Assembly: GCA_021647245.1 (NCBI GenBank) | Contig: JAKIVC010000002.1 | Span: 64,184-128,183, forward strand | Direction: 5' to 3' | DNA length: 64,000 nt | Origin: Gammaproteobacteria bacterium | GTDB taxonomy: Bacteria > Pseudomonadota > Gammaproteobacteria > RBG-16-57-12 | Shown here: piece by piece, positions 835 to 41,455 of the stretch | How positions within the stretch are numbered: the stretch's first letter is position 1 | How the letters are laid out: the number at the start of each line of letters is the position of its first letter | The notes under the pieces: model-generated | The model's input: the letters and a program-made list of their open reading frames with translations, nothing else | What the model was told of the DNA's origin: nothing | The model's database searches: none | Made by a program: the position numbers and the translations under genes

Positions 835-2868
835 CTAACTCGGCAGTTTGAAGCCGGCCACGGAGCCGCGAAGGTCGTGTGCCAGATCGGCCAAATTGCT
901 AATCGAGGCTGAGGTTTCATTCGTGCCCGCCGCCGTTTGGGTGGTGAGATCCTGAATGACATTCATGGTTTCGGAGATATTGTTTGCTGCATTACACTGC
1001 TGTGTTGCCGCTACCGAGATGTTGTGACTCAGGTCATTGAGTTCGTTAGAGACCTCCTCAATTTCAGTCAGAGTATCTCCGGCGGTTTTGGCTAGCTGGG
1101 TTCCCCTAACCACCTCAGTGGTGCTTCGCTCCATTGAAGCAATCGCTTCATTGGTGTCACTTTGAATGGTTTTAACCAGTGCTTCGATCTGTTTGGTAGC
1201 ATCGGTGGAGCGCTCGGCTAGGCGTTGAACTTCATCGGCGACAACCGCAAAGCCACGCCCCGCATCACCCGCCATGGCGGCTTGAATTGCGGCATTCAAT
1301 GCCAGAATATTGGTCTGGTCAGTCAAGTCATTGATTAATTCGACAATTTCACTAATCTCCAGCGAGCTCTCACCTAGGCGCTTGATGCGTTTCGAGGTCT
1401 CTTGAATCTGCTCGCGGATATGCTCCATGCCGTTAATAGAGTCGTGAACAGCGGTGACGCCATCATGGGCGGTTTTGACGGATGTCTTGGCAACGGTGGA
1501 GGAGTTGAGTGCATTAGTGGAGACATCCTCAATCGAGGTGGCCATCTCGTTAATTGCGGTAACAACCGTGGCAATCTGATGTGCTTGGTGGTCGGTGGCA
1601 TCGGCCAGATGTATCGCAGTGGTTTGCGTCTCTGTTGCAGCAGAGGAGACTTGTGACACGGTATCATTAATGGTGTTGACCAAGTTGCGCAGTGCGCTGA
1701 CCACGTAGTTGATATGTTCAGCAATAGCACCCGTAAAGTCATTTGATACGGTCGCTTCTACGGTGAGGTCGCCCTCAGCTAAGCCACTGATTTCGTACAA
1801 TAGACGTTGAATCGCCTCTTCATGCTCCTGGTTGGCTTGTGCACTCTCCTCGATACGCTGGCGTGCATCGCGTAGCAGTGAGTAGGCGAGCCAAATCAAC
1901 ACGATAAGTGCGAAAAAGGCAGCTGCATAGCCCAGGTTTTCGGCGAGAGAGCGTGAAGTGCTGTTGTTCAAATTGATATAGGCGCGCAGCAGGTTGCTGC
2001 TGGCGTGCAGCAGGGCATCTGACTCGCGGTACATATTATTGGCTGCAACCTGTGCCTTGAATAGCTCAGGGGTTCGCTCCAGAATACGCTCCGAGAGGTC
2101 ACTGACGGCCTGATACATCAGATCCAAAACCTCAAGTTTATCTCTTGCAAGCTCATTTCGTATGCGGCTGACATCTTGAGCGGTATCGCCTTCACGCATA
2201 CCGGCCAGCACTTCACCAAACTGGGCAATATCACGCTTAAATTCAGCTGCCGCATTAGCGGCACCCGTGTCGGCATTGATCATTCGGACAAGGTTATACT
2301 CTATGCGCTGTGCCAAGGTAACTTGGTTTGCTGCGTGCTGAATCTGTTTTGGGCGGTATCCGAGTTCCACCATGATATCGACCACTTCGGAAGAGCTCGC
2401 CTGTATCTGGGGCATTAACTCTGCCAGTGCGGAGATAAACTCACTGAGTATGCGGGTAGTCCCTTCAGACTCCAGCGTAATCTCTATATTATTGCTGAAC
2501 TTTTCCCACTCAGTGGTGAGGGCATCGAGTTCCGCCTGGACCTCTTTGGGCGATGGTGGCAGGCCACTCTCGGGGTTGCCATTTTGCAGCTTCATTAGTG
2601 ATGCATTGAAAAGGTCGTGGGTCTCTTTTAGCTTACCGAAGGCATCCACATCGGCTTGTGACGCGGCGATTGCGTATTTCAATACGCGTTGTGAAAGTAG
2701 CCGCTGCTCCCCTGCCGTATTAATGTACTCTCTATCGTGTTGCTCTTTGATAGAGGAGTAACCAAAGAGTAATCCCATTAATACCACCAGCACAATGAGC
2801 AGAGCGATGGCGTAGGTGATTGGCTTATTGTTAGTGCCGCTTTCTGTCTGAATTGCTGATGTTGTCAT
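835..2868 (-). CDS. pilJ: type IV pilus methyl-accepting chemotaxis transducer (PilJ-like)
   Basis: 677 aa ORF with an N-terminal TM helix and a second TM region. The C-terminal MCP signalling hairpin reads NILALNAAIQAAMAGDAGRGFAVVADEVQRLAERS. It sits between pilI and pilK. Confidence 0.9.
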   Translation of the reverse strand: MTTSAIQTESGTNNKPITYAIALLIVLVVLMGLLFGYSSIKEQHDREYINTAGEQRLLSQRVLKYAIAASQADVDAFGKLKETHDLFNASLMKLQNGNPESGLPPSPKEVQAELDALTTEWEKFSNNIEITLESEGTTRILSEFISALAELMPQIQASSSEVVDIMVELGYRPKQIQHAANQVTLAQRIEYNLVRMINADTGAANAAAEFKRDIAQFGEVLAGMREGDTAQDVSRIRNELARDKLEVLDLMYQAVSDLSERILERTPELFKAQVAANNMYRESDALLHASSNLLRAYINLNNSTSRSLAENLGYAAAFFALIVLIWLAYSLLRDARQRIEESAQANQEHEEAIQRLLYEISGLAEGDLTVEATVSNDFTGAIAEHINYVVSALRNLVNTINDTVSQVSSAATETQTTAIHLADATDHQAHQIATVVTAINEMATSIEDVSTNALNSSTVAKTSVKTAHDGVTAVHDSINGMEHIREQIQETSKRIKRLGESSLEISEIVELINDLTDQTNILALNAAIQAAMAGDAGRGFAVVADEVQRLAERSTDATKQIEALVKTIQSDTNEAIASMERSTTEVVRGTQLAKTAGDTLTEIEEVSNELNDLSHNISVAATQQCNAANNISETMNVIQDLTTQTAAGTNETSASISNLADLAHDLRGSVAGFKLPS

Positions 2869-13185: not shown

Positions 13186-13770
13186 ATGATTGAGCATATT
13201 AAGAGAGTATCTGCGAGCAACTATCCTGGCGGGTTTACACATTTACGCCTCGTCGCTGAGGGTATTGCAGAGAAGGCTCGGCCGGGGCAGTGGATTATCT
13301 GGGGCAGCCGCACGCTCTACATTATGCGTAGCGACCCTCAAACAGGCTGTATTGAGCTGCTGTTTACCGGTAAAACACCCCACCAAGATAAGATTGAAGG
13401 GCCTGGCGGAGACGCGCCCGTTCTTCCTGAGGTGTGCTTTCGCTCACTGTTGGTGGGTGGCGTTGAGGCGCTAGCGCAGCTGATTTTTTTTGCTGATTCA
13501 CTGCGCAAGCGCCGGAGTCACACCACGCTGTTGCTGCTGCAAGCGACTCAGCCGCTGCCCTTCACGCCCACTCCTTGCCGCATCATGATTCCAGGAATGC
13601 CTGCGGGTGTTATCGCAACCCTGCCGTTACTGAGTGATTGGGGGGTTGCGCTGCGAATCGCCTCTAATGATGGGCTTCCAGGTTGCTATCATGGCAGTGT
13701 GGATGAGCTGGCAGAGCAGTGGTTGAGCGCGCAGCCTCGACCGAGTGAAATTGCGTGTAGTCGGCTATGA
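13186..13770 (+). CDS. hypothetical protein with faint ferredoxin-reductase/PyrK-like layout
   Basis: 194 aa with coding-like codon usage. RPGQWI (barrel-like) and LLVGGVEALAQL (degenerate nucleotide-binding loop) are spaced as in PyrK-type proteins, but there are no Fe-S cysteines. Its stop abuts the convergent pilU stop. Confidence 0.4.
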   Translation: MIEHIKRVSASNYPGGFTHLRLVAEGIAEKARPGQWIIWGSRTLYIMRSDPQTGCIELLFTGKTPHQDKIEGPGGDAPVLPEVCFRSLLVGGVEALAQLIFFADSLRKRRSHTTLLLLQATQPLPFTPTPCRIMIPGMPAGVIATLPLLSDWGVALRIASNDGLPGCYHGSVDELAEQWLSAQPRPSEIACSRL

Positions 13771-14988
13771 CTCATCAGGGTTGAGCAATACGTAATCTGT
13801 CTGCTGCTTTTTTTTGGGTTCTTTCTCTTTAGGCTCACTCTCTGTATCCTCTTGTTGCTGCTCCGTTATGTTCCAGTCGCGCTCGTTTTCATCCCTATCG
13901 CCATCATGGTCAAGCTTAATCATTAAACGTAACTGATTAGCGGAGTCCGCATGGCGCAGCGCATCTTCATAGGTGATATCACCCGCGTCGTAAAGATCAT
14001 AAAGTGCCTGGTCAAAGGTCTGCATACCCCTATTTTTGGATTTCCCCATCACCTCTTTTATTTTGGCAATCTCACCTTTTTGAATGAGATCCGAGACGAA
14101 GGGTGTGCCGATCAGAATCTCCAGAGCGGCGCACCGACTATTGCCATCAACGCGGGTAATCAGCTGCTGGGCGATGATTGCTTTTAGGTTGAGTGAAAGA
14201 TCCAGCAGTATCTGCTCACGCCGCTCAAAGGGGAAGAAGTTGATAATGCGCTCGAGTGACTGGTTGGCATTATTAGCATGTAGCGTAGCGAGGCAGAGGT
14301 GCCCAGTTTCAGCAAAGGTAAGCGCGTGCTCCATGGTTTCGCGGGTACGAATTTCACCAATCAAAATAACATCGGGTGCTTGTCGCAGGGTGTTTTTAAG
14401 TGCGATGCCATAGCTTTCAGTATCAACACCCACTTCGCGCTGGGTGATGATACAGCCATCGTGTTGGTGAATATATTCGATGGGATCCTCAATGGAGATG
14501 ATATGACCATGCGAGTTACGGTTGCGGTGGCCGATCATGGCAGCCAGTGAGGTGGATTTTCCTGAGCCGGTTCCACCCACCACTAAAATTAAGCCACGCT
14601 TCTCCATTACCATCTCATTGAGCTGAAGAGGAAGCTTGAGCGCTTCTATTGTTGGAATTACCGTCTCAATCTTGCGTAACACCATGCCGATTTTCTGTTT
14701 TTGACAGAAGACACTGACACGAAAGCGCCCGACATTAGGTCGGTGGATGGCAAAGTTAGCCTCCTGTGTCTCATCAAACTGGCGGCGTTGCTCTGCATTC
14801 ATTACGCTATAGACCACATCCGTGGCCTGCTGCTGGCTGAGTGGGTTGGGTGAGACTGGGACATTTCGACCATTGATTTTTAGCGTGGGTGGCAAGTCTG
14901 CGGATACAAACATATCCGAGGCTTGTCTGCGCATCATCAGCTTGAGCAGGTAGTCAAAATTTTCAATCGATTGGGTGTTTTTTGTCAC
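13765..14988 (-). CDS. pilU: type IV pilus retraction-type ATPase PilU
   Basis: PilT/PilU family with Walker A GGTGSGKST, Asp box and His box. I place the start at GTG 14988, preceded by AAGGA and overlapping the pilT stop (TAGTG). The ORF-track ATG at 15072 lies inside pilT. Confidence 0.9.
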   Translation of the reverse strand: MTKNTQSIENFDYLLKLMMRRQASDMFVSADLPPTLKINGRNVPVSPNPLSQQQATDVVYSVMNAEQRRQFDETQEANFAIHRPNVGRFRVSVFCQKQKIGMVLRKIETVIPTIEALKLPLQLNEMVMEKRGLILVVGGTGSGKSTSLAAMIGHRNRNSHGHIISIEDPIEYIHQHDGCIITQREVGVDTESYGIALKNTLRQAPDVILIGEIRTRETMEHALTFAETGHLCLATLHANNANQSLERIINFFPFERREQILLDLSLNLKAIIAQQLITRVDGNSRCAALEILIGTPFVSDLIQKGEIAKIKEVMGKSKNRGMQTFDQALYDLYDAGDITYEDALRHADSANQLRLMIKLDHDGDRDENERDWNITEQQQEDTESEPKEKEPKKKQQTDYVLLNPDES

Positions 14989-16025
14989 TAGCGGAATAGA
15001 TCCTTGTTGACGGCTTTTGTGGCAGCATCCTGCTTGCTGACCAAACCTTTTTGTACCAGGTTTTGTAGGCACTGATCCAGTGTTTGCATGCCAATCGCCT
15101 GGCTGGTTTGAAGTACCGAGTACATCTGCGGCACCTTCGCTTCGCGAATAAGATTACGAATTGCGGGCGTACCAATCATTATTTCGTGGGCCGCTATGCG
15201 CCCGCCACCCATCTTTTTCAGCAGTGATTGGGAGATAACCGCTTGCAGTGACTCAGAGAGCATCGCCCGCACCATCTCTTTTTCACCACCAGGAAAGACA
15301 TCGATAATCCGGTCGATGGTTTTCGCCGCTGAGCTGGTGTGGAGCGTGCCAAATACCAAGTGCCCGGTTTCAGCGGCTGAAAGCGCTAAACCGATGGTTT
15401 CAGGGTCACGCATTTCACCCACCAGAATAACATCAGGGTCTTCACGTAGCGCAGAGCGCAGTGACTCGGAAAAGCCAAGGGTGTCGCGATGAACTTCGCG
15501 TTGATTGATGAGGCATTTTTTTGATTCGTGCACAAATTCTATCGGGTCTTCAATGGTTAGAATATGGCCAAACTCATTCTCATTTTTGTCATTTACCATG
15601 GCGGCGAGGGTGGTGGATTTACCCGAGCCGGTAGGGCCCGTTACCAGCACCAGGCCGCGTGGATATTGTGCAATCCTCTTGAATATTTCGGGGGCACCCA
15701 GATCGTCCAGCGTGAGTATTTTTGAAGGGATGGTTCGGAATACCGCACCGGCTCCCCGGTTTTGATTGAAAGCATTGACACGAAAACGCGCTAAGTTGGG
15801 TATTTCGAAGGAGAAATCAGTCTCAAAGAACTCCTCGAAATCTTTGCGCTGTTTATCATTCATGATGTCATAAATCAGGCTCTGCACCGTTTTGTGGTCG
15901 AGTGCTGGCACATTAATTCGGCGAATATCACCGTCAACACGAATCATCGGCGGCTCACCCGCAGAGAGGTGTAGATCAGATGCGTTATTTTTCACACCAA
16001 AAGCGAGCAGTTCTGTAATGTCCAT
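14988..16025 (-). CDS. pilT: type IV pilus twitching motility ATPase PilT
   Basis: 345 aa with MDITELLAFGVKNNASDLHL, Walker A GPTGSGKST and AHEIMIGTPAIRNLIRE. Confidence 0.95.
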   Translation of the reverse strand: MDITELLAFGVKNNASDLHLSAGEPPMIRVDGDIRRINVPALDHKTVQSLIYDIMNDKQRKDFEEFFETDFSFEIPNLARFRVNAFNQNRGAGAVFRTIPSKILTLDDLGAPEIFKRIAQYPRGLVLVTGPTGSGKSTTLAAMVNDKNENEFGHILTIEDPIEFVHESKKCLINQREVHRDTLGFSESLRSALREDPDVILVGEMRDPETIGLALSAAETGHLVFGTLHTSSAAKTIDRIIDVFPGGEKEMVRAMLSESLQAVISQSLLKKMGGGRIAAHEIMIGTPAIRNLIREAKVPQMYSVLQTSQAIGMQTLDQCLQNLVQKGLVSKQDAATKAVNKDLFR

Positions 16026-33758: not shown

Positions 33759-33884
33759 TAGCCGAGTTTTACCACGGACAAAAAACAGCAAAAATTGTCG
33801 ACCCCTTCTCTTTTCTGATAAAAGCGCATTGCGAGGCCTATGGGGGCAAGGTAAGTTAATTATCTTGCTCCTGAGGTGAATGAG

Positions 33885-34967
33885 ATGTTCCGATATTTAG
33901 TAGTGGCTGCGCTGTTTCCTATGTTGTCCGGCTGTGGTGGAGATACCCCGGCATCATCCAGTGAACCAGAGCGTGTTGAAAAAATAGTCGCTCGAGAGAG
34001 TAACCGTAGCTGCCTTGCTCCGGCGGATGCTATCGATACCGCGACCCGGCTCTCCACCACAGGCTGTTTTACAGATGTTAGCAACCAGATAATGGCGGGT
34101 GGGGTGATCCCCTACACCGTCAATAGCGTGTTGTGGTCCGATGGTGAGAGCAAAGGGCGTTATTTTGCAGTGCCGGATGGCACGACCATCAGCTTAACGG
34201 TGGACGAATCTTCAATTGTTGCCAGTAATGGCACTAAAAATGGTGATTTCAACTTTCCGGTAGGCGCGGTGGTGATCAAACACTTCTATAGTGGCAGCCG
34301 TATCGTTGAGACCCGCTTGCTGATGAACCATGCCAATGATGGTTGGGGTGGCTACGCCTATCAGTGGGATGAGTCACAGAGTGACGGTACCCTGCTGGTT
34401 GGCTCAAATAGCATCACCACACCGGTCAGCCACTATTTCCCGAGCCGCGAAGAGTGTATGGAGTGCCATACGGATGCCGCTCGGGTGTTATTAGGGCCGG
34501 ATACTCTACAACTCAATTACCCCCTTTACTATACGGATGGCACAGAAGAGAACTATCTCGATGCTTTGGTTCGATTAAATTACCTCTCGGCACCGTTGCT
34601 GGCGGATTATAAGGTGGATCGGCTCTATGCAATTGACGATAGCGACGCACCATTAGAGCAGCGAGCCAGAAGCTATTTGCACAGTAACTGCTCGGGCTGT
34701 CACCGCACTGGCGCACCGCAAGGTGGCTTTGATCTTCGTTACACCTCATCGTTTGTAAACAATGTTTGTGGTATCGCTGCAGCAGAGCCGACCAGCCCCA
34801 CCGGAGGGTTGCTGATCGACCCCGGCAATGCTGATAACGCCACTATTCAGCAGCGACTCGCCTCTATGGGGAGCATTCAAATGCCACCTATCGGGCGAGA
34901 GCAAACCGACCCCGAAGCGGTTCAAGTGATGGCTGATTGGATCAATAGCCTGCAGGGCTGTGATTAA
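33885..34967 (+). CDS. putative dihaem c-type cytochrome lipoprotein
   Basis: Lipobox MLSGC and two CxxCH motifs (CMECH, CSGCH). ATG 33885 follows GAGGTG. Confidence 0.7.
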   Translation: MFRYLVVAALFPMLSGCGGDTPASSSEPERVEKIVARESNRSCLAPADAIDTATRLSTTGCFTDVSNQIMAGGVIPYTVNSVLWSDGESKGRYFAVPDGTTISLTVDESSIVASNGTKNGDFNFPVGAVVIKHFYSGSRIVETRLLMNHANDGWGGYAYQWDESQSDGTLLVGSNSITTPVSHYFPSREECMECHTDAARVLLGPDTLQLNYPLYYTDGTEENYLDALVRLNYLSAPLLADYKVDRLYAIDDSDAPLEQRARSYLHSNCSGCHRTGAPQGGFDLRYTSSFVNNVCGIAAAEPTSPTGGLLIDPGNADNATIQQRLASMGSIQMPPIGREQTDPEAVQVMADWINSLQGCD

Positions 34968-37612
34968 CCCAGCAACTTTTTTAACTCCGGCACACATGAG
35001 CCACAATTTGTGCCGGCATTCAGATAGCTACCAATCTCTTCCACACTTTTCAAGCCATGTTTTTGGATCGCCTCTCGAATACTGTTTTCACCTACCTTGA
35101 AACAGGCGCAGACCACACGCCCGGTATCAACCTGGCCGACCGGTGGCTTTCCAGTGAGCAGTGCACGGCGCTCATCATTATCCAGCACCTCTTTTTCAAA
35201 AAGTGAGGCGAGCCAACTGCGGGGTGGCAGCGCTTTGTCCGGGGCGATGAAAATACAGCTCTCCACTTGATCTCCTGTCATACGAATACCTCGATAGGTG
35301 TTTGCGCCGTTATCCAGCAGTTCGACCCAGTTGACATCATTATTTGAGGTGCAAAGATAACTTCTCGCCCATGCGGGGAGATCTTTGGAGCGTTGCTCAC
35401 CCGCCACTTCGTATCGATAGTGGTTATTGCCGGTTGCCCTTGCCCAGTAACAGACCCCTTCCAGTTTTAATGCGCGGCGCGAAAGGATAAAGCCGTGCCA
35501 TGCGGTTTGGTAAGGCTTAAGCTGCACCGGCGTATGTTTAAACTCAGGTTGGCCCGAAAGCGGGTCTACCGCAGGATTGACCACTGCGGAGGCTTTTCCC
35601 CTGCTGGAAAACTGCTCGCTCCAGTGCATCGGCGCAAACAATTCACCACGGCGCTGGCCGTTGTCCAAGCGTACTCGCCCGATCATCTCACCCCAGCGGC
35701 TGGTCACCGTGGCTAACGCATCCTCATTGATAGAGAGCGCCACGGCATCATCAGGATGAATGGCGATGTAGGGTTCGGGGCTATGCTCAGATAGCCGTGG
35801 CGCCTTTCCAGTGCGGGTCATGGTGTGCCACTGGTCGCGTACCCGCCCAGTATTCAGAATAAAGGGAAAGCTGTCACAGGGCATGTGTGCGGGTAGCCGT
35901 GGCTCAATGGCTTGAAACTGTGCCTTGCCTGATGGCGTGAAAAAATGGCCATCACTAAACATGCGAGCACTCCCCGCAGGCTGCTGTTGATTCACTGGCC
36001 ACTGGATGGGTGATAGCTGGTGGTAACTCTGTTGAGTTTGACTGCTCAGTGCCGAAAGGTCGAAGTCACGCTCTCCGTTGTTTCTATATCCGGAAAGAGC
36101 CGCGTGTTCGTTAAATATTTCGTAAGGGTGTTGATAATTAAAACCATCGCTATACCCCATACGCTTGGCCACCTCAGAGATTATCCACCAATCGGGTTTT
36201 GCTTCACCGGCAGCCGCCTGAAAAGCTCTCTGGCGTGAGATACGTCGTTCAGAATTGGTAACGGTGCCGCTCTTCTCCCCCCAGCCTTGGGCCGGTAATA
36301 AAATATTGGCACGGAGGGTGGTGTCGGTCTGCTTAACGCAATCGGAGACCACTACAAACTCGCACTGTTTGATCGCTTCTGCAACGTGGTCTGCATTGGG
36401 CATGCTGGCTGCGGGGTTGGTGGCCATGATCCATACAGCCTTGATCTTTCCCTTGGCAATATCATCAAACATATCTACCGCCTTGCGGCCGCTTTGTTTA
36501 GGAATGGCGGGTGAGCCCCAGAAGCTTTGTACTAAAGTACGGTGCGCGGGGTTTTTTATCTCCATATGAGCGGCCAACATATTGGCCAACCCGCCTACTT
36601 CGCGCCCTCCCATGGCGTTTGGTTGGCCAGTAAAAGAGAAGGGGCCCATGCCGGGGCGACCGATACGCCCGGTGGCCAGATGGCAGTTGATAATGGCATT
36701 GACCTTATCCGAACCACTGGTTGATTGATTAATGCCCTGAGAGTAGACAGTGACCACCCGCTCTGTGCGGGAGAAGAGTCGATAAAACGCTTGAACCACA
36801 GACACTTCGAGGCCACAGCGTAGTGCCACGGAGTCGACGCTAGGCGCGGTTTTTTCTGCCATGCGGAGTGCGGTCTCAAACCCCTCGGTATAAGCATTCA
36901 AATAACTGTGGTTTATTTCACCATCCCGCTGCAGATAACTTAGCAAGCCATTAAACAGTACGGTATCGGTACCAGAACGCAGGGGCAGGTGGAGGTCGGC
37001 AATGTCACAGCTGGGGGTCTCTCTGGGGTCGATTACTACCACCATCAGATCGGGGTTGACCCGCTTTGCCTGGTTGATTCGCTGAAACAGTACCGGATGA
37101 CACCAGGCTGCATTGGTGCCGGCCAGTACAATCAGCTTTGCTCGTTCCAGATCTTCATAACAGCAGGGCACGGTGTCTGACCCAAAAGCGCGTTTATGGC
37201 CTGTGACAGAAGAGGACATGCAGAGCCGCGAGTTGGTATCAATATTGGCTGTGCCGATATAACCTTTGATCAGCTTATTGGCGACATAGTAATCTTCAGT
37301 CAAGAGTTGCCCCGACACATAAAAAGCGACCGCGTCAGGGCCGTGCTGCTCAACGGTTGCTAAAAACCTCTCCGCGACCTCCCCAAGCGCCTGATCCCAG
37401 CTGGCGGGTATTCCCTCAATTTCGGGCTGGAGCAGCCGCCCCTCCAGTCCCAAGGTTTCGCCCAACGCCGACCCTTTGGAGCAGAGCTTGCCAAAATTAG
37501 CGGGGTGCAGCGGGTCACCTTGGACTGTGTAGCCGCCATCAGCATTCGCTGCTACCAGCACTCCGCAGCCAACACCACAATAGGGGCAGGTTGTTTTTGT
37601 CATCTTGGACAT
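34964..37612 (-). CDS. nasA: assimilatory nitrate reductase catalytic subunit with C-terminal BFD-like [2Fe-2S] domain
   Basis: 882 aa. The N-terminal TCPYCGVGCGV 4Fe-4S motif is typical of NasA/NarB, followed by a molybdopterin oxidoreductase body. The C-terminal CACFKV...CGSCVPE is a BFD-type cluster. Confidence 0.9.
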   Translation of the reverse strand: MSKMTKTTCPYCGVGCGVLVAANADGGYTVQGDPLHPANFGKLCSKGSALGETLGLEGRLLQPEIEGIPASWDQALGEVAERFLATVEQHGPDAVAFYVSGQLLTEDYYVANKLIKGYIGTANIDTNSRLCMSSSVTGHKRAFGSDTVPCCYEDLERAKLIVLAGTNAAWCHPVLFQRINQAKRVNPDLMVVVIDPRETPSCDIADLHLPLRSGTDTVLFNGLLSYLQRDGEINHSYLNAYTEGFETALRMAEKTAPSVDSVALRCGLEVSVVQAFYRLFSRTERVVTVYSQGINQSTSGSDKVNAIINCHLATGRIGRPGMGPFSFTGQPNAMGGREVGGLANMLAAHMEIKNPAHRTLVQSFWGSPAIPKQSGRKAVDMFDDIAKGKIKAVWIMATNPAASMPNADHVAEAIKQCEFVVVSDCVKQTDTTLRANILLPAQGWGEKSGTVTNSERRISRQRAFQAAAGEAKPDWWIISEVAKRMGYSDGFNYQHPYEIFNEHAALSGYRNNGERDFDLSALSSQTQQSYHQLSPIQWPVNQQQPAGSARMFSDGHFFTPSGKAQFQAIEPRLPAHMPCDSFPFILNTGRVRDQWHTMTRTGKAPRLSEHSPEPYIAIHPDDAVALSINEDALATVTSRWGEMIGRVRLDNGQRRGELFAPMHWSEQFSSRGKASAVVNPAVDPLSGQPEFKHTPVQLKPYQTAWHGFILSRRALKLEGVCYWARATGNNHYRYEVAGEQRSKDLPAWARSYLCTSNNDVNWVELLDNGANTYRGIRMTGDQVESCIFIAPDKALPPRSWLASLFEKEVLDNDERRALLTGKPPVGQVDTGRVVCACFKVGENSIREAIQKHGLKSVEEIGSYLNAGTNCGSCVPELKKLLG

Positions 37613-38010: not shown

Positions 38011-38162
38011 TTTTAGTCAAAAGCAAGTGAAGCAGTTTGCCGTATACCGTTGTAACTTGATAACGATCTGATAATCGTTAATAAAGTGTTATTTTTTTAG
38101 TGTATTTATGTTTAACTGCACAAGGTAAGAGACAAAACTATTTTCTTTATAGGAGAGAACAC

Positions 38163-38519
38163 GTGAGTTCATTATTTGATCGTTTGGGTGGTAATGCGGC
38201 TGTAGATGCAGCGGTAGATATTTTTTACGCTAAGGTATTGGCAGATGATCGTATCAACCAGTTTTTTACAACGGTTGATATGGAGACACAAGCGGCCAAG
38301 CAAAAAGCCTTTTTAACCATGGCTTTTGGTGGTCCGAATAGCTATACCGGGCTGGATATGCGTGAAGGGCATAAACATATGAACCTGAACGAAGGTCATT
38401 TTACTGCGGTGGTTGAAAATCTGGCCGCTACACTGAAAGAACTGGGTGTTTCTGATGCCGATATTGCCGAAGTTGCTGAAGTTGCCAATAGCGTAAAGGA
38501 TGATGTGCTAAACCGTTAA
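38163..38519 (+). CDS. group I truncated haemoglobin (trHbN-like)
   Basis: From GTG 38163, after AGGAGA: SLFDRLGGNAAVDAAVDIFYAKVLADDRINQFF...QKAFLTMAFGGPNSYTG.DMREGHKHM. This is the 2-on-2 globin pattern. Confidence 0.85.
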   Translation: MSSLFDRLGGNAAVDAAVDIFYAKVLADDRINQFFTTVDMETQAAKQKAFLTMAFGGPNSYTGLDMREGHKHMNLNEGHFTAVVENLAATLKELGVSDADIAEVAEVANSVKDDVLNR

Positions 38520-38541
38520 GAACAGCTGCTACGGATAATAG

Positions 38542-38574
38542 CGCCTCAACACATGCTGTGTTGAGGCGTTTTTT
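38542..38574 (+). terminator. rho-independent terminator after the haemoglobin gene
   Basis: cgcctcaacac-atgct-gtgttgaggcg followed by tttttt. Confidence 0.85.
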
Positions 38575-38682: not shown

Positions 38683-39231
38683 GTGTCAAAATTACTCAAA
38701 ATATTTGAGAAGCTCGCGGGCGAGCGGCGGGGCCGAGTGCGTCACGTTGAGATTCTGATCGCAACGGTGGCGGCGTTAACTGCACTTTTGATGGTGGGGT
38801 GGATTAGTCGCTCGGTTGCGGGTGATCAGGCTGGCCTCTATTTAATGGCCTCAATGGGCGCATCAGCGGTATTGATTTTTGCTGTGCCTGCTACTCAAAT
38901 GGCAAGGCCGTGGGCCTTCTGTTGCGGGCACTTTGTCTCTGCCTTTGTGGGTGTGAGTTGTAGTTTGTTGATAGGGGATCTGGTTTTAGCGGCGGCACTC
39001 GCGGTCTCGATCTCTATCTTTTTGATGAGCTACCTGCGTTGCCTGCATCCGCCGGGTGGCGCTGCGGCAATGATTCCTATTGTTAGTGGCGAGTCAGTTA
39101 CTGCAATGGGCTACAGTTTTCTACTTATCCCTGTTGGCATTAATGTATTGGTGATGCTGCTGTTTTCACTGGCTTACTTTCGCTGGATGGCACAGCGGGA
39201 GAAGCGGTTTATGGCGCAGCGATCCAAGTAG
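38683..39231 (+). CDS. HPP family membrane protein
   Basis: 182 aa with four hydrophobic helices and the eponymous motif CLHPPGGAAA. Start is GTG 38683. Confidence 0.75.
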   Translation: MSKLLKIFEKLAGERRGRVRHVEILIATVAALTALLMVGWISRSVAGDQAGLYLMASMGASAVLIFAVPATQMARPWAFCCGHFVSAFVGVSCSLLIGDLVLAAALAVSISIFLMSYLRCLHPPGGAAAMIPIVSGESVTAMGYSFLLIPVGINVLVMLLFSLAYFRWMAQREKRFMAQRSK

Positions 39232-39241
39232 CGGCTCTTAG

Positions 39242-40189
39242 CTACTCCGCCAGTTGCAGTATAAACATCTCGACTACAAGCAAGGTACTTAAGAAGGTGG
39301 AAAATAGACTGATGTAGAGTGTTTTGTATTGGTTGTCATACTCTTTTTCGAGGGTATTGCTGAGTTGTTTCATGAGTGAGTTGAGCTGCTTGAAGCTAAG
39401 GCCGATGGCATCACTGGCAATAGCAAAATAGTGATCAGGTTTGATCATAATTTTTTTTGCGCTCAGGAATTCCCTGTCTAGAGTGCTCAAAAACAGCGCA
39501 ATACTTTTCTGGCATTGGGTGAAATCCAACATGTTTTTATCGATTTTTTGATGCCTTAAAATGGTAATTGTCTCATCACATACCAGTGAGGCCTTTTGAT
39601 GAAGATAGCCCAACTTACTCCGGCTTTGTGTATTTAGACGGGCTTGAGTTGCGGCTCCAGTGCCAATTCCCCTTGCCTGACCCAGCACTTCGGTAACAAA
39701 GGGGAGTATGTTGATACCGATCTCCAGCAGTCCATGCAGCTGCTTGTCATCACTGTTGTCCAGCTTGCTCAGGCTGCCGGTATCACTAATTAGATTAAGT
39801 AGTTTTGAGATAATGGCGGTGTGCAGGGAGAAGCTCTCCTCAGCACTGAGTGATGAGAAGTTTTCAGTTACTTTATGCCAGCCCTTCTTAACCTCAAGAT
39901 AACCGGGTGAGCTTGAAAATTCAGGGTAATCGTTACTTATTTTCTGTAGCTGCCGGCCTATTTTTTTTTGGTGCGCATAGCACTTCTCCTTGAAAGCTGA
40001 GTTGCCTTTCAGTAGCGCATTGCTCATGCCGCGATGCTGGGGAATGCTCTCTAGTAACTGGAAAAGCTGGCGGATAACCAATAATCCTGCCTGCCGCCGA
40101 GCTGAAAAACGCCGTTGAACCACCACAGAGCGTAACCACGCCACTGAGATAAAAAATAAAATGAGAGAGACCAGAGTAAGCGTCAGCAT
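39242..40189 (-). CDS. stand-alone membrane-bracketed NIT (nitrate/nitrite-sensing) domain protein
   Basis: 315 aa. It has an N-terminal TM helix ([16 protein letters not shown]), a ~250 aa helical domain opening with ..[21 protein letters not shown] (NIT-type Q-x-x-R-G-x-S motif), and a second TM helix at the extreme C-terminus ([21 protein letters not shown]). There is no output domain. Confidence 0.65.
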
Positions 40190-41340
40190 GGTGACTTCTC
40201 TTGTGAACGGGATAACTTGACCAGATAGCCGGCTGTTTCGGATGCCTCTTGGATCACTTCGGTGGTCTGTTGAGCCATCTGATTTATTTTTTCGATATTG
40301 ATGGAGATTTCGCTACTGCTGCTATTCTGCTGGTGAATTGCCAGGCTGATATTTTCCATTGCCGCAACGGTGGATTTCGCCCCTTGTTTAATTGACTGAA
40401 GGGCGTTGTGGGTCGAATCAGAGAGCCCAACACTGTTATTGATGGCGTTGATGATCTGCTCCATACCGTTGCTGACATTCTGCACATCTTGTTGAATAGC
40501 GGATATTTGTTGATTAACTTTGGAGGCCGCCTGCTGGGAGCGTTGCGCCAACTGCCTTACTTCATCAGAAACCACAGAGAAGCCACGGCCATGTTCACCT
40601 GCACGAGCTGCTTCGATGGCTGCATTCAGTGCCAGCAGGTTAGTCTGGTTTGCTATATCATTGATGGTGTCGATGATTGAGCTGATCTCTTGCGAGCGTG
40701 ATAGCAGGCCGTTGATCTGTTCGGTTGATTGATTAATTGAATGAGAGGCCGTCTGGATTTCGGTCGCCATGGTTTTAACAATGTCATCACCTTCAGTCGC
40801 ATAGGTGTCCAACATTTTTGAGGTGCTGTCGGCTTCGTCAGCAAGCCCCGAGATGGTATCGATATTACCGCTTAACTGCTCCATCTCATTTAAAATGCTA
40901 GCCACCGAAGTCTGTTGAATGGTCATCATTTCAGTCGAGTGCCCATTCATTTTTGCTAAATCAAGTGCCGCACTGTGTAGCTCTTCGCTGGCGCTTTTAC
41001 TCTTTTCGTCCAAGCGTTCAACCGCAACCCGCTGCTGATGAAATGCGCTGAATATGGGGTTAAACTCATTCTCTTTATAGCAAGCGGTCTCCCCCTTTGT
41101 CAGGCGGCGTATAGTGTGTAGCTGATAGTGGTGATAAGCAAAAATCAGGTAGAGGGTGATGCTCAGCGTTATGATGACAAGGAGTGTCAGGTCAAATTGC
41201 AGTGCGGGTTCAAGCGTCGGGATAAGATAGAGCAGCGCAGAGGCTAAGGGCAGTACGGTAAGTGATACGATAAAAATCAGTTTTTGGCGTAGTGAGAGTC
41301 GTTCAAAAAGAGCGGTGACGGGTTTGAATAATTGATCCAT
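40183..41340 (-). CDS. methyl-accepting chemotaxis protein with minimal membrane hairpin (no periplasmic sensor, no obvious HAMP)
   Basis: 385 aa. Two closely spaced TM helices (residues ~20-70) are followed directly by the MCP signalling domain ([35 protein letters not shown]). Its stop overlaps the start of the NIT gene (ATGCTGA, 7 nt). Confidence 0.9.
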
Positions 41341-41455
41341 TCTGCTATTCCTCGTTTTCCTCGTCTATCAGGTAGCCCAGAATAACATTATGATGCGGGT
41401 TTCGAGTTACTCCGTACTACTACCTATAAGGGGTTTGGAACAAGTGAGGGTAATT

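Follow-up and report, generated by a model that had tools for sequence, protein, structure and literature searches.

The 64,000-nucleotide (nt) stretch analysed here, referred to as the window, comprises positions 64,184 to 128,183 of contig JAKIVC010000002.1 from a gammaproteobacterial genome assembly (GCA_021647245.1). On its minus strand, two overlapping genes encode a methyl-accepting chemotaxis protein (MCP) of 385 amino acids (aa) that lacks a sensor domain (40183..41340) and, directly downstream, a 315-aa protein made of a NIT domain between two transmembrane (TM) helices (39242..40189). The best-supported reading of these data is that both products interact physically and form a two-protein chemoreceptor, which we consider fairly likely. 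A first-pass annotation of the window had described a receptor split between these two genes, and the two genes do encode a sensor-less MCP and a separate TM-NIT-TM protein. The same annotation was aware of no described split chemoreceptor of this kind. This stands for the NIT module, since we found no split NIT/MCP receptor and no stand-alone membrane-anchored NIT family in the open-access literature; as a general statement it does not, since bipartite chemoreceptors are already known (CetA/CetB, CetB2/CetA2 and the Htr/sensory rhodopsin systems), none of them found with a NIT module.

Both genes start with ATG, and the signalling module precedes the sensor, as first annotated. The 3′ end of the MCP gene reads CCA TGC TGA and the NIT gene opens with ATG CTG ACG; thus, the stop codon of the former and the start codon of the latter share the 7-nt sequence ATGCTGA (40183..40189), an overlap that the first-pass annotation had read correctly. 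This overlap is preceded by the purine-rich sequence AAGAGAAG. A Shine-Dalgarno-like GAGGAA (41348..41353, minus strand) is located 7 nt 5′ of the MCP start codon. A consensus scan of the region 5′ of the MCP gene gave no sigma-70-like promoter, and a sigma-28-like match seen there by eye was too weak to be retained. Neither an Rfam nor a tRNA scan gave a match in the window.

The 385-aa protein matches the Pfam MCPsignal model over residues 190-355 with 144.5 bits. Pfam identified neither a sensor domain nor a HAMP domain in it, and the NCBIfam search returned only generic MCP equivalogs, far under their cut-off. An AlphaFold2 (AF2) model of the monomer, built on an alignment of 35 short homologues (mean pLDDT 83; pTM 0.40, which is low; hairpin tip unresolved), was used solely for the secondary structure of the first 120 residues. 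It predicts a short N-terminal helix, a helix at residues 17-39, a 5-residue loop (40-44), a helix at residues 45-82, an 11-residue connector (83-93) and the long signalling helix. Together with hydropathy and alignments, this places TM1 at approximately residues 21-43 (41212..41280), after a K/R-rich cytoplasmic N-terminal peptide, and TM2 at approximately residues 51-71 (41128..41190), with a periplasmic loop of only ~5-10 residues. A HAMP-like helix-connector-helix follows at approximately residues 72-105 (41026..41127), and the core of the signalling domain, with its hairpin-tip motif, occupies residues 190-355 (40276..40773). In TM2, Y64 is invariant in the family and D50 nearly so, both at the periplasmic end, and the hairpin-tip motif of the signalling domain is invariant in 35 members of the MCP family. 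The best ~35 homologues are all 385-432 aa long and carry PF00015 only. Distant partner MCPs show the typical G-D-F...D-E signature of HAMP, which is 11 residues longer than the corresponding segment of the window MCP. Based on this model, the protein is predicted to consist of a tight TM hairpin, a minimal HAMP-like linker and a signalling domain; the 5-residue loop and the Pfam result confirm the sensor-less membrane hairpin noted at first reading.

For the 315-aa protein, the Pfam NIT model (PF08376) scores 18.5 bits, i.e., below its threshold of 24.9, and NCBIfam holds no family. Nevertheless, its assignment as TM-NIT-TM, already made in the first-pass annotation, holds because homologues, a family profile and a fold comparison agree on it. 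PF08376 is precomputed in 17 of 23 word-indexed homologues, nearly all of 287-330 aa, and a search with a profile of the NIT family found 5,227 proteins in a representative library of 1.8 billion. Among the best 150 of these matches, stand-alone proteins, 277-332 aa in length, account for about half (~70 clusters at 50% identity), which makes the stand-alone family a large one; the others are mostly longer NIT proteins, and those that were checked are NIT-HAMP-MCPs, NIT-GAF-GGDEF proteins and NIT-histidine kinases. The AF2 model (pLDDT 90.5, pTM 0.83) is all-helical with eight main helices, of which the long helices 2-60 and 251-314 extend from the hydrophobic ends into the bundle. In a Foldseek comparison with the PDB, NasR (4AKK) was the best and sole confident match (prob 1.0, TMq 0.63; next match E > 0.05), and the model is predicted to adopt the same all-helical fold of two tandem four-helix bundles. 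A HMMER search of the PDB sequences with the family profile returned nothing, and the link to NasR is one of fold.

The first TM helix of the NIT protein spans residues 1-22 (40124..40189), without any N-terminal tail, and is flanked by an Arg-rich segment (R20, R24, R25, R29 and R30). The NIT domain covers approximately residues 35-285 (39335..40087), and TM2, at approximately residues 293-311 (39257..39313), is followed by four residues only (QLAE). The residues Q51-H52-R53-G54 of the first helix, W104, S119, F120, H123, P163, E167 and R173/G176 (the last two within GQARGIG) are invariant in the stand-alone proteins. By eye, an HRG-type motif is also visible in two canonical NIT receptors, P0049 and P0024 (loci and proteins are designated here by L and P numbers, respectively).

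A scan of one genome per GTDB species yielded 53 loci, which were classified by script. There are 22 long single open reading frames (ORFs) in which NIT is fused to a downstream output, 18 of them with the MCP signalling domain in the same ORF, and 28 clear split MCP-NIT pairs. Two more loci also have an MCP immediately upstream of the NIT gene: L013, where the frame is locally confused, and L033, where the contig ends before the MCP C-terminus is complete. The protein of L029 is truncated by its contig and was placed in the fused clade. Thus, the MCP gene is located directly upstream on the same strand in all 30 evaluable species-level loci of stand-alone NIT genes; because the same pair in the same order is found in every one of them, the arrangement is not due to chance. 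The spacing between the genes in the 28 clear loci is -7 (two loci), -4 (seven), -1 (one), +2 to +56 (17) and +223 nt (one), which corresponds to an overlap in 10 and to an overlap or a gap of at most 56 nt in 27. At several of the gapped junctions, a GGAGG-like motif is present just 5′ of the NIT start. This spacing suggests that the two genes are co-transcribed and that their translation is often coupled.

The contigs of five homologues with 64% to 28% identity gave the same result. In four of them, the gene immediately 5′ of the NIT gene, in the same orientation, encodes an MCP; the fifth (P0014) begins inside the upstream ORF, which tblastn matches to an MCP C-terminus. The pair is present in all metagenomic contexts that were inspected, at 34% to 28% identity. 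The pair is conserved down to ~25% identity across Gammaproteobacteria (Chromatiales, Woeseiaceae, Ectothiorhodospiraceae, Tenderia and Methylocaldum) and Betaproteobacteria (Gallionella, Sulfuricella, Sterolibacterium and Methyloversatilis). Relative to the nearest relative of the window locus (L011), the NIT gene has a ratio of nonsynonymous to synonymous substitution rates (dN/dS) of 0.13 and the MCP gene one of 0.064, which shows that purifying selection acts on both.

To trace the origin of the pair, we used neighbour-joining trees of the NIT and MCP signalling domains. In the tree of 227 NIT modules, 116 of the 118 stand-alone proteins group in one clade without any fused member, and the two that fall outside are fragments cut by contig ends. 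This topology indicates a single origin of the stand-alone NITs. In the tree of the MCP signalling domains, a 40-leaf clade contains all 31 hairpin partners, three NIT-MCPs with a downstream stand-alone NIT and six ordinary NIT-MCPs. Additionally, canonical NIT-MCPs, such as P0132 (LLTPAVALMNRLPYARKFGLIALVFAIPMA), begin with a segment homologous to the N-terminal peptide and TM1 of the window MCP. As judged from this shared segment, the hairpin MCP thus arose from a NIT-MCP by deletion of the ligand-binding domain.

In two Methylocaldum loci (L027:3860-6882 and L031:3858-6882) and one Methyloversatilis locus (L036:3702-6882), a complete NIT-HAMP-MCP of 674 aa is followed, after 23-25 nt, by a stand-alone TM-NIT-TM protein of 324 aa. 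The stand-alone NIT of these loci falls in the stand-alone clade, and the NIT of the MCP itself in the fused clade. This state has survived in Methylocaldum sp. GT1BB, an isolate with a sequenced genome, and in a metagenome-assembled genome assigned to Methyloversatilis universalis. It resembles an intermediate step on the way from the canonical to the split state. The downstream sensor gene would have been added first, plausibly by tandem duplication and truncation, and the upstream receptor would have lost its own sensor afterwards; the postulated route leads from a fused NIT-MCP, through a NIT-MCP with a stand-alone NIT, to a hairpin MCP with a stand-alone NIT. Addition of the sensor gene downstream before the receptor lost its sensor would explain the permuted gene order.

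The canonical NIT-MCPs that are closest to the partner MCPs were observed in nitrogen-assimilation contexts (L064 and L065). Two of these near relatives, P0132 and P0069, were checked for a downstream stand-alone NIT, and none was found. Downstream of P0132 lies a gene that, judged by eye, resembles nirB (L064:2387-2539). P0069 is followed by a 67-aa ORF and lies between an ammonium transporter gene (amtB) and the genes of a GATase, a P-II protein and glutamine synthetase (glnA) (L065:1587-7912).

The first-pass annotation had assumed a periplasmic NIT domain that signals solely through membrane helices. The charges that flank the TM helices suggest otherwise. We compared 75 canonical fused receptors with 98 stand-alone proteins. 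The median number of residues before TM1 is 21 in the canonical receptors and 2 in the stand-alone family, with 2.40 and 0.03 K/R, respectively. In the 12 residues after TM1, the canonical receptors have 1.37 K/R and 2.09 D/E, and the stand-alone proteins have 3.52 K/R and 0.59 D/E. The segment before TM2 contains 2.83 and 3.04 K/R, and that after TM2 contains 1.19 and 0.11 K/R, the median tail of the stand-alone proteins being 2 residues. The canonical pattern is the one expected for an N-in anchor with an exported domain. In the stand-alone proteins, 96 of 98 have an excess of K/R on the NIT side. In the betaproteobacterial clade, the N-terminus is acidic (MDSYEW...) and ARRSRQ follows the hydrophobic segment. 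Arginines directly after a signal-anchor are known to block export. Based on this and on the positive-inside rule, the stand-alone NIT is probably cytoplasmic, with both of its minute termini outside.

A betaproteobacterial subclade (e.g., L007/L028, L035, L038-L041, L043, L049 and L060) lacks the second TM helix, and the TM sequences of the NIT protein are in general poorly conserved. Because the NIT is predicted to be cytoplasmic and TM2 is absent from this subclade, signalling purely through membrane helices is not required. A cytoplasmic location of NIT is known from NasR (PMC12591593). Two single-chain receptors, P0024 (950 aa) and P0049 (918 aa; L066:3001-5757), have the order NIT-TM-HAMP-MCPsignal-NIT, with a second NIT at the C-terminus of the MCP; since no TM helix precedes it, this second NIT must be cytoplasmic, as deduced from the domain order. 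In the NIT tree, the second NIT of each protein is closest to the first NIT of the same protein, which points to independent internal duplications. We therefore do not count these two proteins as fusions that speak for the membrane arrangement, and they lend support only to the notion of an MCP with a cytoplasmic NIT joined to it.

Truncated globins and NnrS proteins are linked to the handling of nitric oxide. Near the pair, the plus strand of the window encodes a truncated (bacterial-like) globin (38100..38519; Pfam Bac_globin) and, convergent with the NIT gene, a HPP-family membrane protein (38683..39231; Pfam TM_HPP, 147.8 bits). A HPP gene adjoins the pair in L001, L004, L008, L011, L012, L016, L017, L026, L033 and L046; HPP and globin genes recur in L001, L004 and L008 and in ~8 of the ~30 species-level split loci. 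Fer2/FAD/NAD reductase, NnrS and hemerythrin genes often accompany HPP or globin near the pair. On the minus strand, an assimilatory-type molybdopterin nitrate reductase with a BFD-like [2Fe-2S] C-terminus is encoded at 34964..37612 (Pfam). The proximity to a nitrate locus stressed at first reading is thus real in the window, but a nitrate reductase beside the pair is shared, by tblastn, only by the closest relative, L011. Nitrite-transport activity has been reported for the HPP family (Maeda et al. 2014, as cited in PMC7438415). This neighbourhood is circumstantial evidence that fits intracellular sensing of nitrate or nitrite as the putative ligand.

The same region has further features of its own. 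The stop codons of the convergent HPP and NIT genes are only 10 nt apart, and a 6-bp inverted repeat, AGTAGC/GCTACT, spans both stops (39227-39246), an arrangement too tight for a conventional terminator. A strong intrinsic-terminator-like hairpin of 14 pairs with a T-run (38540-38570, plus strand) is located between the globin and HPP genes, which for this reason appear to be separate transcription units here. A 363-aa ORF without a Pfam match (33876-34967, plus strand) converges on the nitrate reductase gene with a 4-nt 3′ overlap (34964-34967).

Starting from the architecture, conserved pairing, evolutionary origin and purifying selection described above, we infer the following for the interaction, orientation, ligand and signal route. 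The first gene would provide an MCP derived from a canonical NIT-MCP that has lost its ligand-binding domain and keeps the N-terminal peptide, the TM hairpin, the short HAMP-like linker and the kinase-control domain. The second would provide the sensor module as a separate protein, in which one or two TM helices anchor NIT to the membrane, beside the membrane-proximal (HAMP/adaptation) part of the MCP dimer. NIT would change its conformation on binding a small anion, for which our best guess is nitrate or nitrite that has entered the cell or was made inside it. The signal could reach the MCP through the HAMP-proximal region, which NIT would touch laterally, through the TM hairpin or through both, and would bias CheA activity and, with it, swimming. 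By analogy with PAS, which acts in this lateral manner in Aer and in the bipartite CetA/CetB and CetB2/CetA2 systems (PMC2628428, PMC12442639), contact with the HAMP-proximal region seems a likelier route than the TM helices alone, and the TM helices of the NIT protein would serve as a tether and possibly as a docking surface. Taken as a whole, this account of a two-protein receptor with a tethered cytoplasmic NIT that passes a small-anion signal to the MCP appears to us somewhat more probable than its negation. We are more tentative, and somewhat short of even confidence, on the history it would imply, i.e., that a periplasmic ligand-binding domain was duplicated from its own chemoreceptor, flipped into the cytoplasm by redistribution of charges and now acts as a tethered intracellular sensor of nitrate, nitrite or a related anion.

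Several points weigh against this account. The predicted topology is derived from the positive-inside rule only, and the segment before TM2 is also rich in K/R in canonical periplasmic NITs (2.83); thus, the TM1 flank alone discriminates between the two orientations. The trees of NIT and MCP were built without bootstrap support. The clade of the window MCP (six sequences) has a deletion of 11 residues in the HAMP connector relative to all other partner MCPs. As for the ligand, HPP and globin neighbours are present in only ~8 of the ~30 species-level split loci and in none of the betaproteobacterial clade. In a study of the P. aeruginosa chemoreceptor PA4520, its NIT domain did not bind either of the two anions, nitrate and nitrite, and the authors suggested that NIT is a superfamily with diverse ligands (PMC6381276). 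No nitrate taxis was seen for NIT-MCPs of P. putida and P. fluorescens (PMC6381276).

The strongest alternative is that put forward in the first-pass annotation, in which NIT is periplasmic and senses external nitrate or nitrite, and its TM helices pack on the MCP hairpin and signal by helix-helix contacts. Periplasmic NIT domains are indeed the origin of the stand-alone NIT, in which TM1 and the QHRG motif are still ~30 residues apart. Residues at the periplasmic rim of the MCP hairpin are conserved (D50 and Y64, as well as L36, Y38 and P41 in a 5-sequence alignment), and in the SRII-HtrII complex, TM contacts are able to drive a transducer that has two helices (PMC5292967, PMC12917780). Nevertheless, the charges oppose export across the whole family, where a positive N-region is missing and 3.5 K/R directly follow TM1 (96 of 98 proteins), and the acidic N-terminus and ARRSRQ segment of the betaproteobacterial clade have the same tendency. 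The absence of TM2 from an entire subclade and the poor conservation of the TM sequences of the NIT protein also speak against signalling by helix packing. We consider a periplasmic sensor unlikely.

Less probable still, and in our estimate quite improbable, is that the NIT protein is an accessory of the MCP (such as an inhibitor or stabiliser, a localisation factor or a link to a neighbouring transporter) and not its ligand sensor, with the hairpin MCP sensing another input, such as the membrane or energy state, or contributing only to array structure. The Methylocaldum and Methyloversatilis loci lend this idea some weight, given that their upstream MCP keeps its own periplasmic NIT and the stand-alone protein is not needed there as the sole input; sensor-less hairpin MCPs also occur in other contexts, and NIT domains of chemoreceptors have failed ligand-binding tests (PMC6381276). 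However, the invariance of QHRG, GQARGIG, W104, S119-F120, H123 and E167 in the stand-alone clade suggests that a binding or conformational function has been retained, and the pairing with an MCP is universal, whereas that with transporter neighbours is not. Finally, the idea that the pair is a decaying, functionless remnant of a rearranged or frameshifted canonical NIT-MCP gene, to which the domain content of one such gene cut in two might point, was rejected as having a negligible probability, given the permuted order, the two intact ORFs, the retention of the pair at deep divergence in at least 30 species-level genomes and of ~70 stand-alone clusters among the best 150 profile matches, the dN/dS of 0.06-0.13 and the purity of the stand-alone clade, all of which uphold the early view that a simple frameshift cannot account for it.

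Chemoreceptors are usually read as one gene with one sensor. In public annotation, members of the stand-alone NIT family appear as "hypothetical protein" or, loosely, as "methyl-accepting chemotaxis protein". Since genome surveys score MCPs of ~390 aa as sensor-less and NIT proteins as hypothetical, a whole sensory input is missed. Its carriers are sulfur-, iron- and methane-oxidising Gamma- and Betaproteobacteria that live on gradients of nitrate and oxygen. With a cytoplasmic NIT, the two-protein receptor proposed here would be a third independent way, after PAS (CetAB) and rhodopsin (Htr), to feed a signal into a sensor-less transducer, and if it senses intracellular anions, it would be a receptor for metabolism-linked anion taxis. 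What is newest about it is that a ligand-binding domain has probably changed compartment, while intermediates of its evolution are still extant; a cytoplasmic orientation would make it a natural case of a sensor domain that switches compartment by inversion of its topology, and the surviving intermediates make both the evolutionary route and the mechanism experimentally testable.

Elsewhere in the window, a PilJ-domain MCP of 677 aa (835-2868, minus strand) and two adjacent PilT/PilU-like T2SSE ATPases (13765-16025, minus strand) are chemosensory/twitching components of type IV pili. A Pfam scan of ~30 of the larger ORFs of the window (mostly of at least 200 aa) gave no che kinase or adaptor gene. 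On the plus strand, the segment 18595-25651 encodes a dynamin-family GTPase (649 aa), an AIR-synthase-related protein and, after them, three successive ORFs of 371, 554 and 323 aa without a Pfam match.

The pair shares features with several known systems. The canonical NIT-HAMP-MCPs (P0037, P0132, P0069 and PA4520) have the same NIT fold and motifs, and a homologous N-terminal peptide and TM1, HAMP (HAMP-like in the window MCP) and signalling domain. They are single chains with the sensor first, i.e., with a periplasmic NIT between TM1 and TM2, whereas the pair consists of two ORFs with the signalling module first, an MCP without NIT and a paralogous NIT encoded downstream with its flanking charges reversed. 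NasR, a NIT-ANTAR antiterminator (4AKK) and the best structural match, has a NIT that is cytoplasmic and responds to nitrate and nitrite (PMC12591593). Unlike the membrane-anchored protein described here, NasR is a soluble protein in which NIT is joined to an ANTAR output domain that binds RNA, and HMMER detects no sequence similarity between the two.

Intramembrane-sensing kinases, such as BceS with BceAB and LiaS with LiaF, also combine a TM hairpin and a minimal extracellular loop with a separate membrane protein that perceives the stimulus. Unlike the pair, those systems signal through a histidine kinase, and their accessory proteins, which are transporters or inhibitors, have no relation to NIT. 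In the Htr/sensory rhodopsin systems, the transducer gene precedes the sensor gene in one operon. As in SRII-HtrII and SRI-HtrI, where a 2:2 complex is formed, a two-helix MCP-like transducer that lacks a sensor would take its signal from a separate integral membrane protein (PMC5292967, PMC12917780, PMC13269893). The sensor is there a 7-TM retinal protein that responds to light and is unrelated to NIT, whereas the NIT protein has one or two TM helices; coupling through TM helices has been demonstrated for these partners, and in the pair it would be one possible route.

The closest parallel is provided by the bipartite energy/aerotaxis receptors CetA/CetB of Campylobacter jejuni and CetB2/CetA2 of Magnetospirillum gryphiswaldense (PMC2628428, PMC12442639). 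Like CetA, the transducer of the pair lacks a sensor domain and is made of a TM hairpin, whose periplasmic loop is very short, a HAMP domain (here HAMP-like) and an MCP signalling domain (PMC2628428, PMC12442639). The sensor is in both cases a separate protein encoded by an adjacent gene, as found here in all 30 evaluable loci; this gene is transcribed together with that of the transducer in the Cet systems and probably also here, and the Cet sensor has been proposed to act on the HAMP region from the cytoplasmic side. CetB is a soluble or peripheral PAS-FAD protein that senses redox changes; the NIT sensor differs in being all-helical, integrally anchored by one or two TM helices and descended from the periplasmic ligand-binding domain of the receptor itself. 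By this analogy, the pair would work like the CetA/CetB family without being a member of it.

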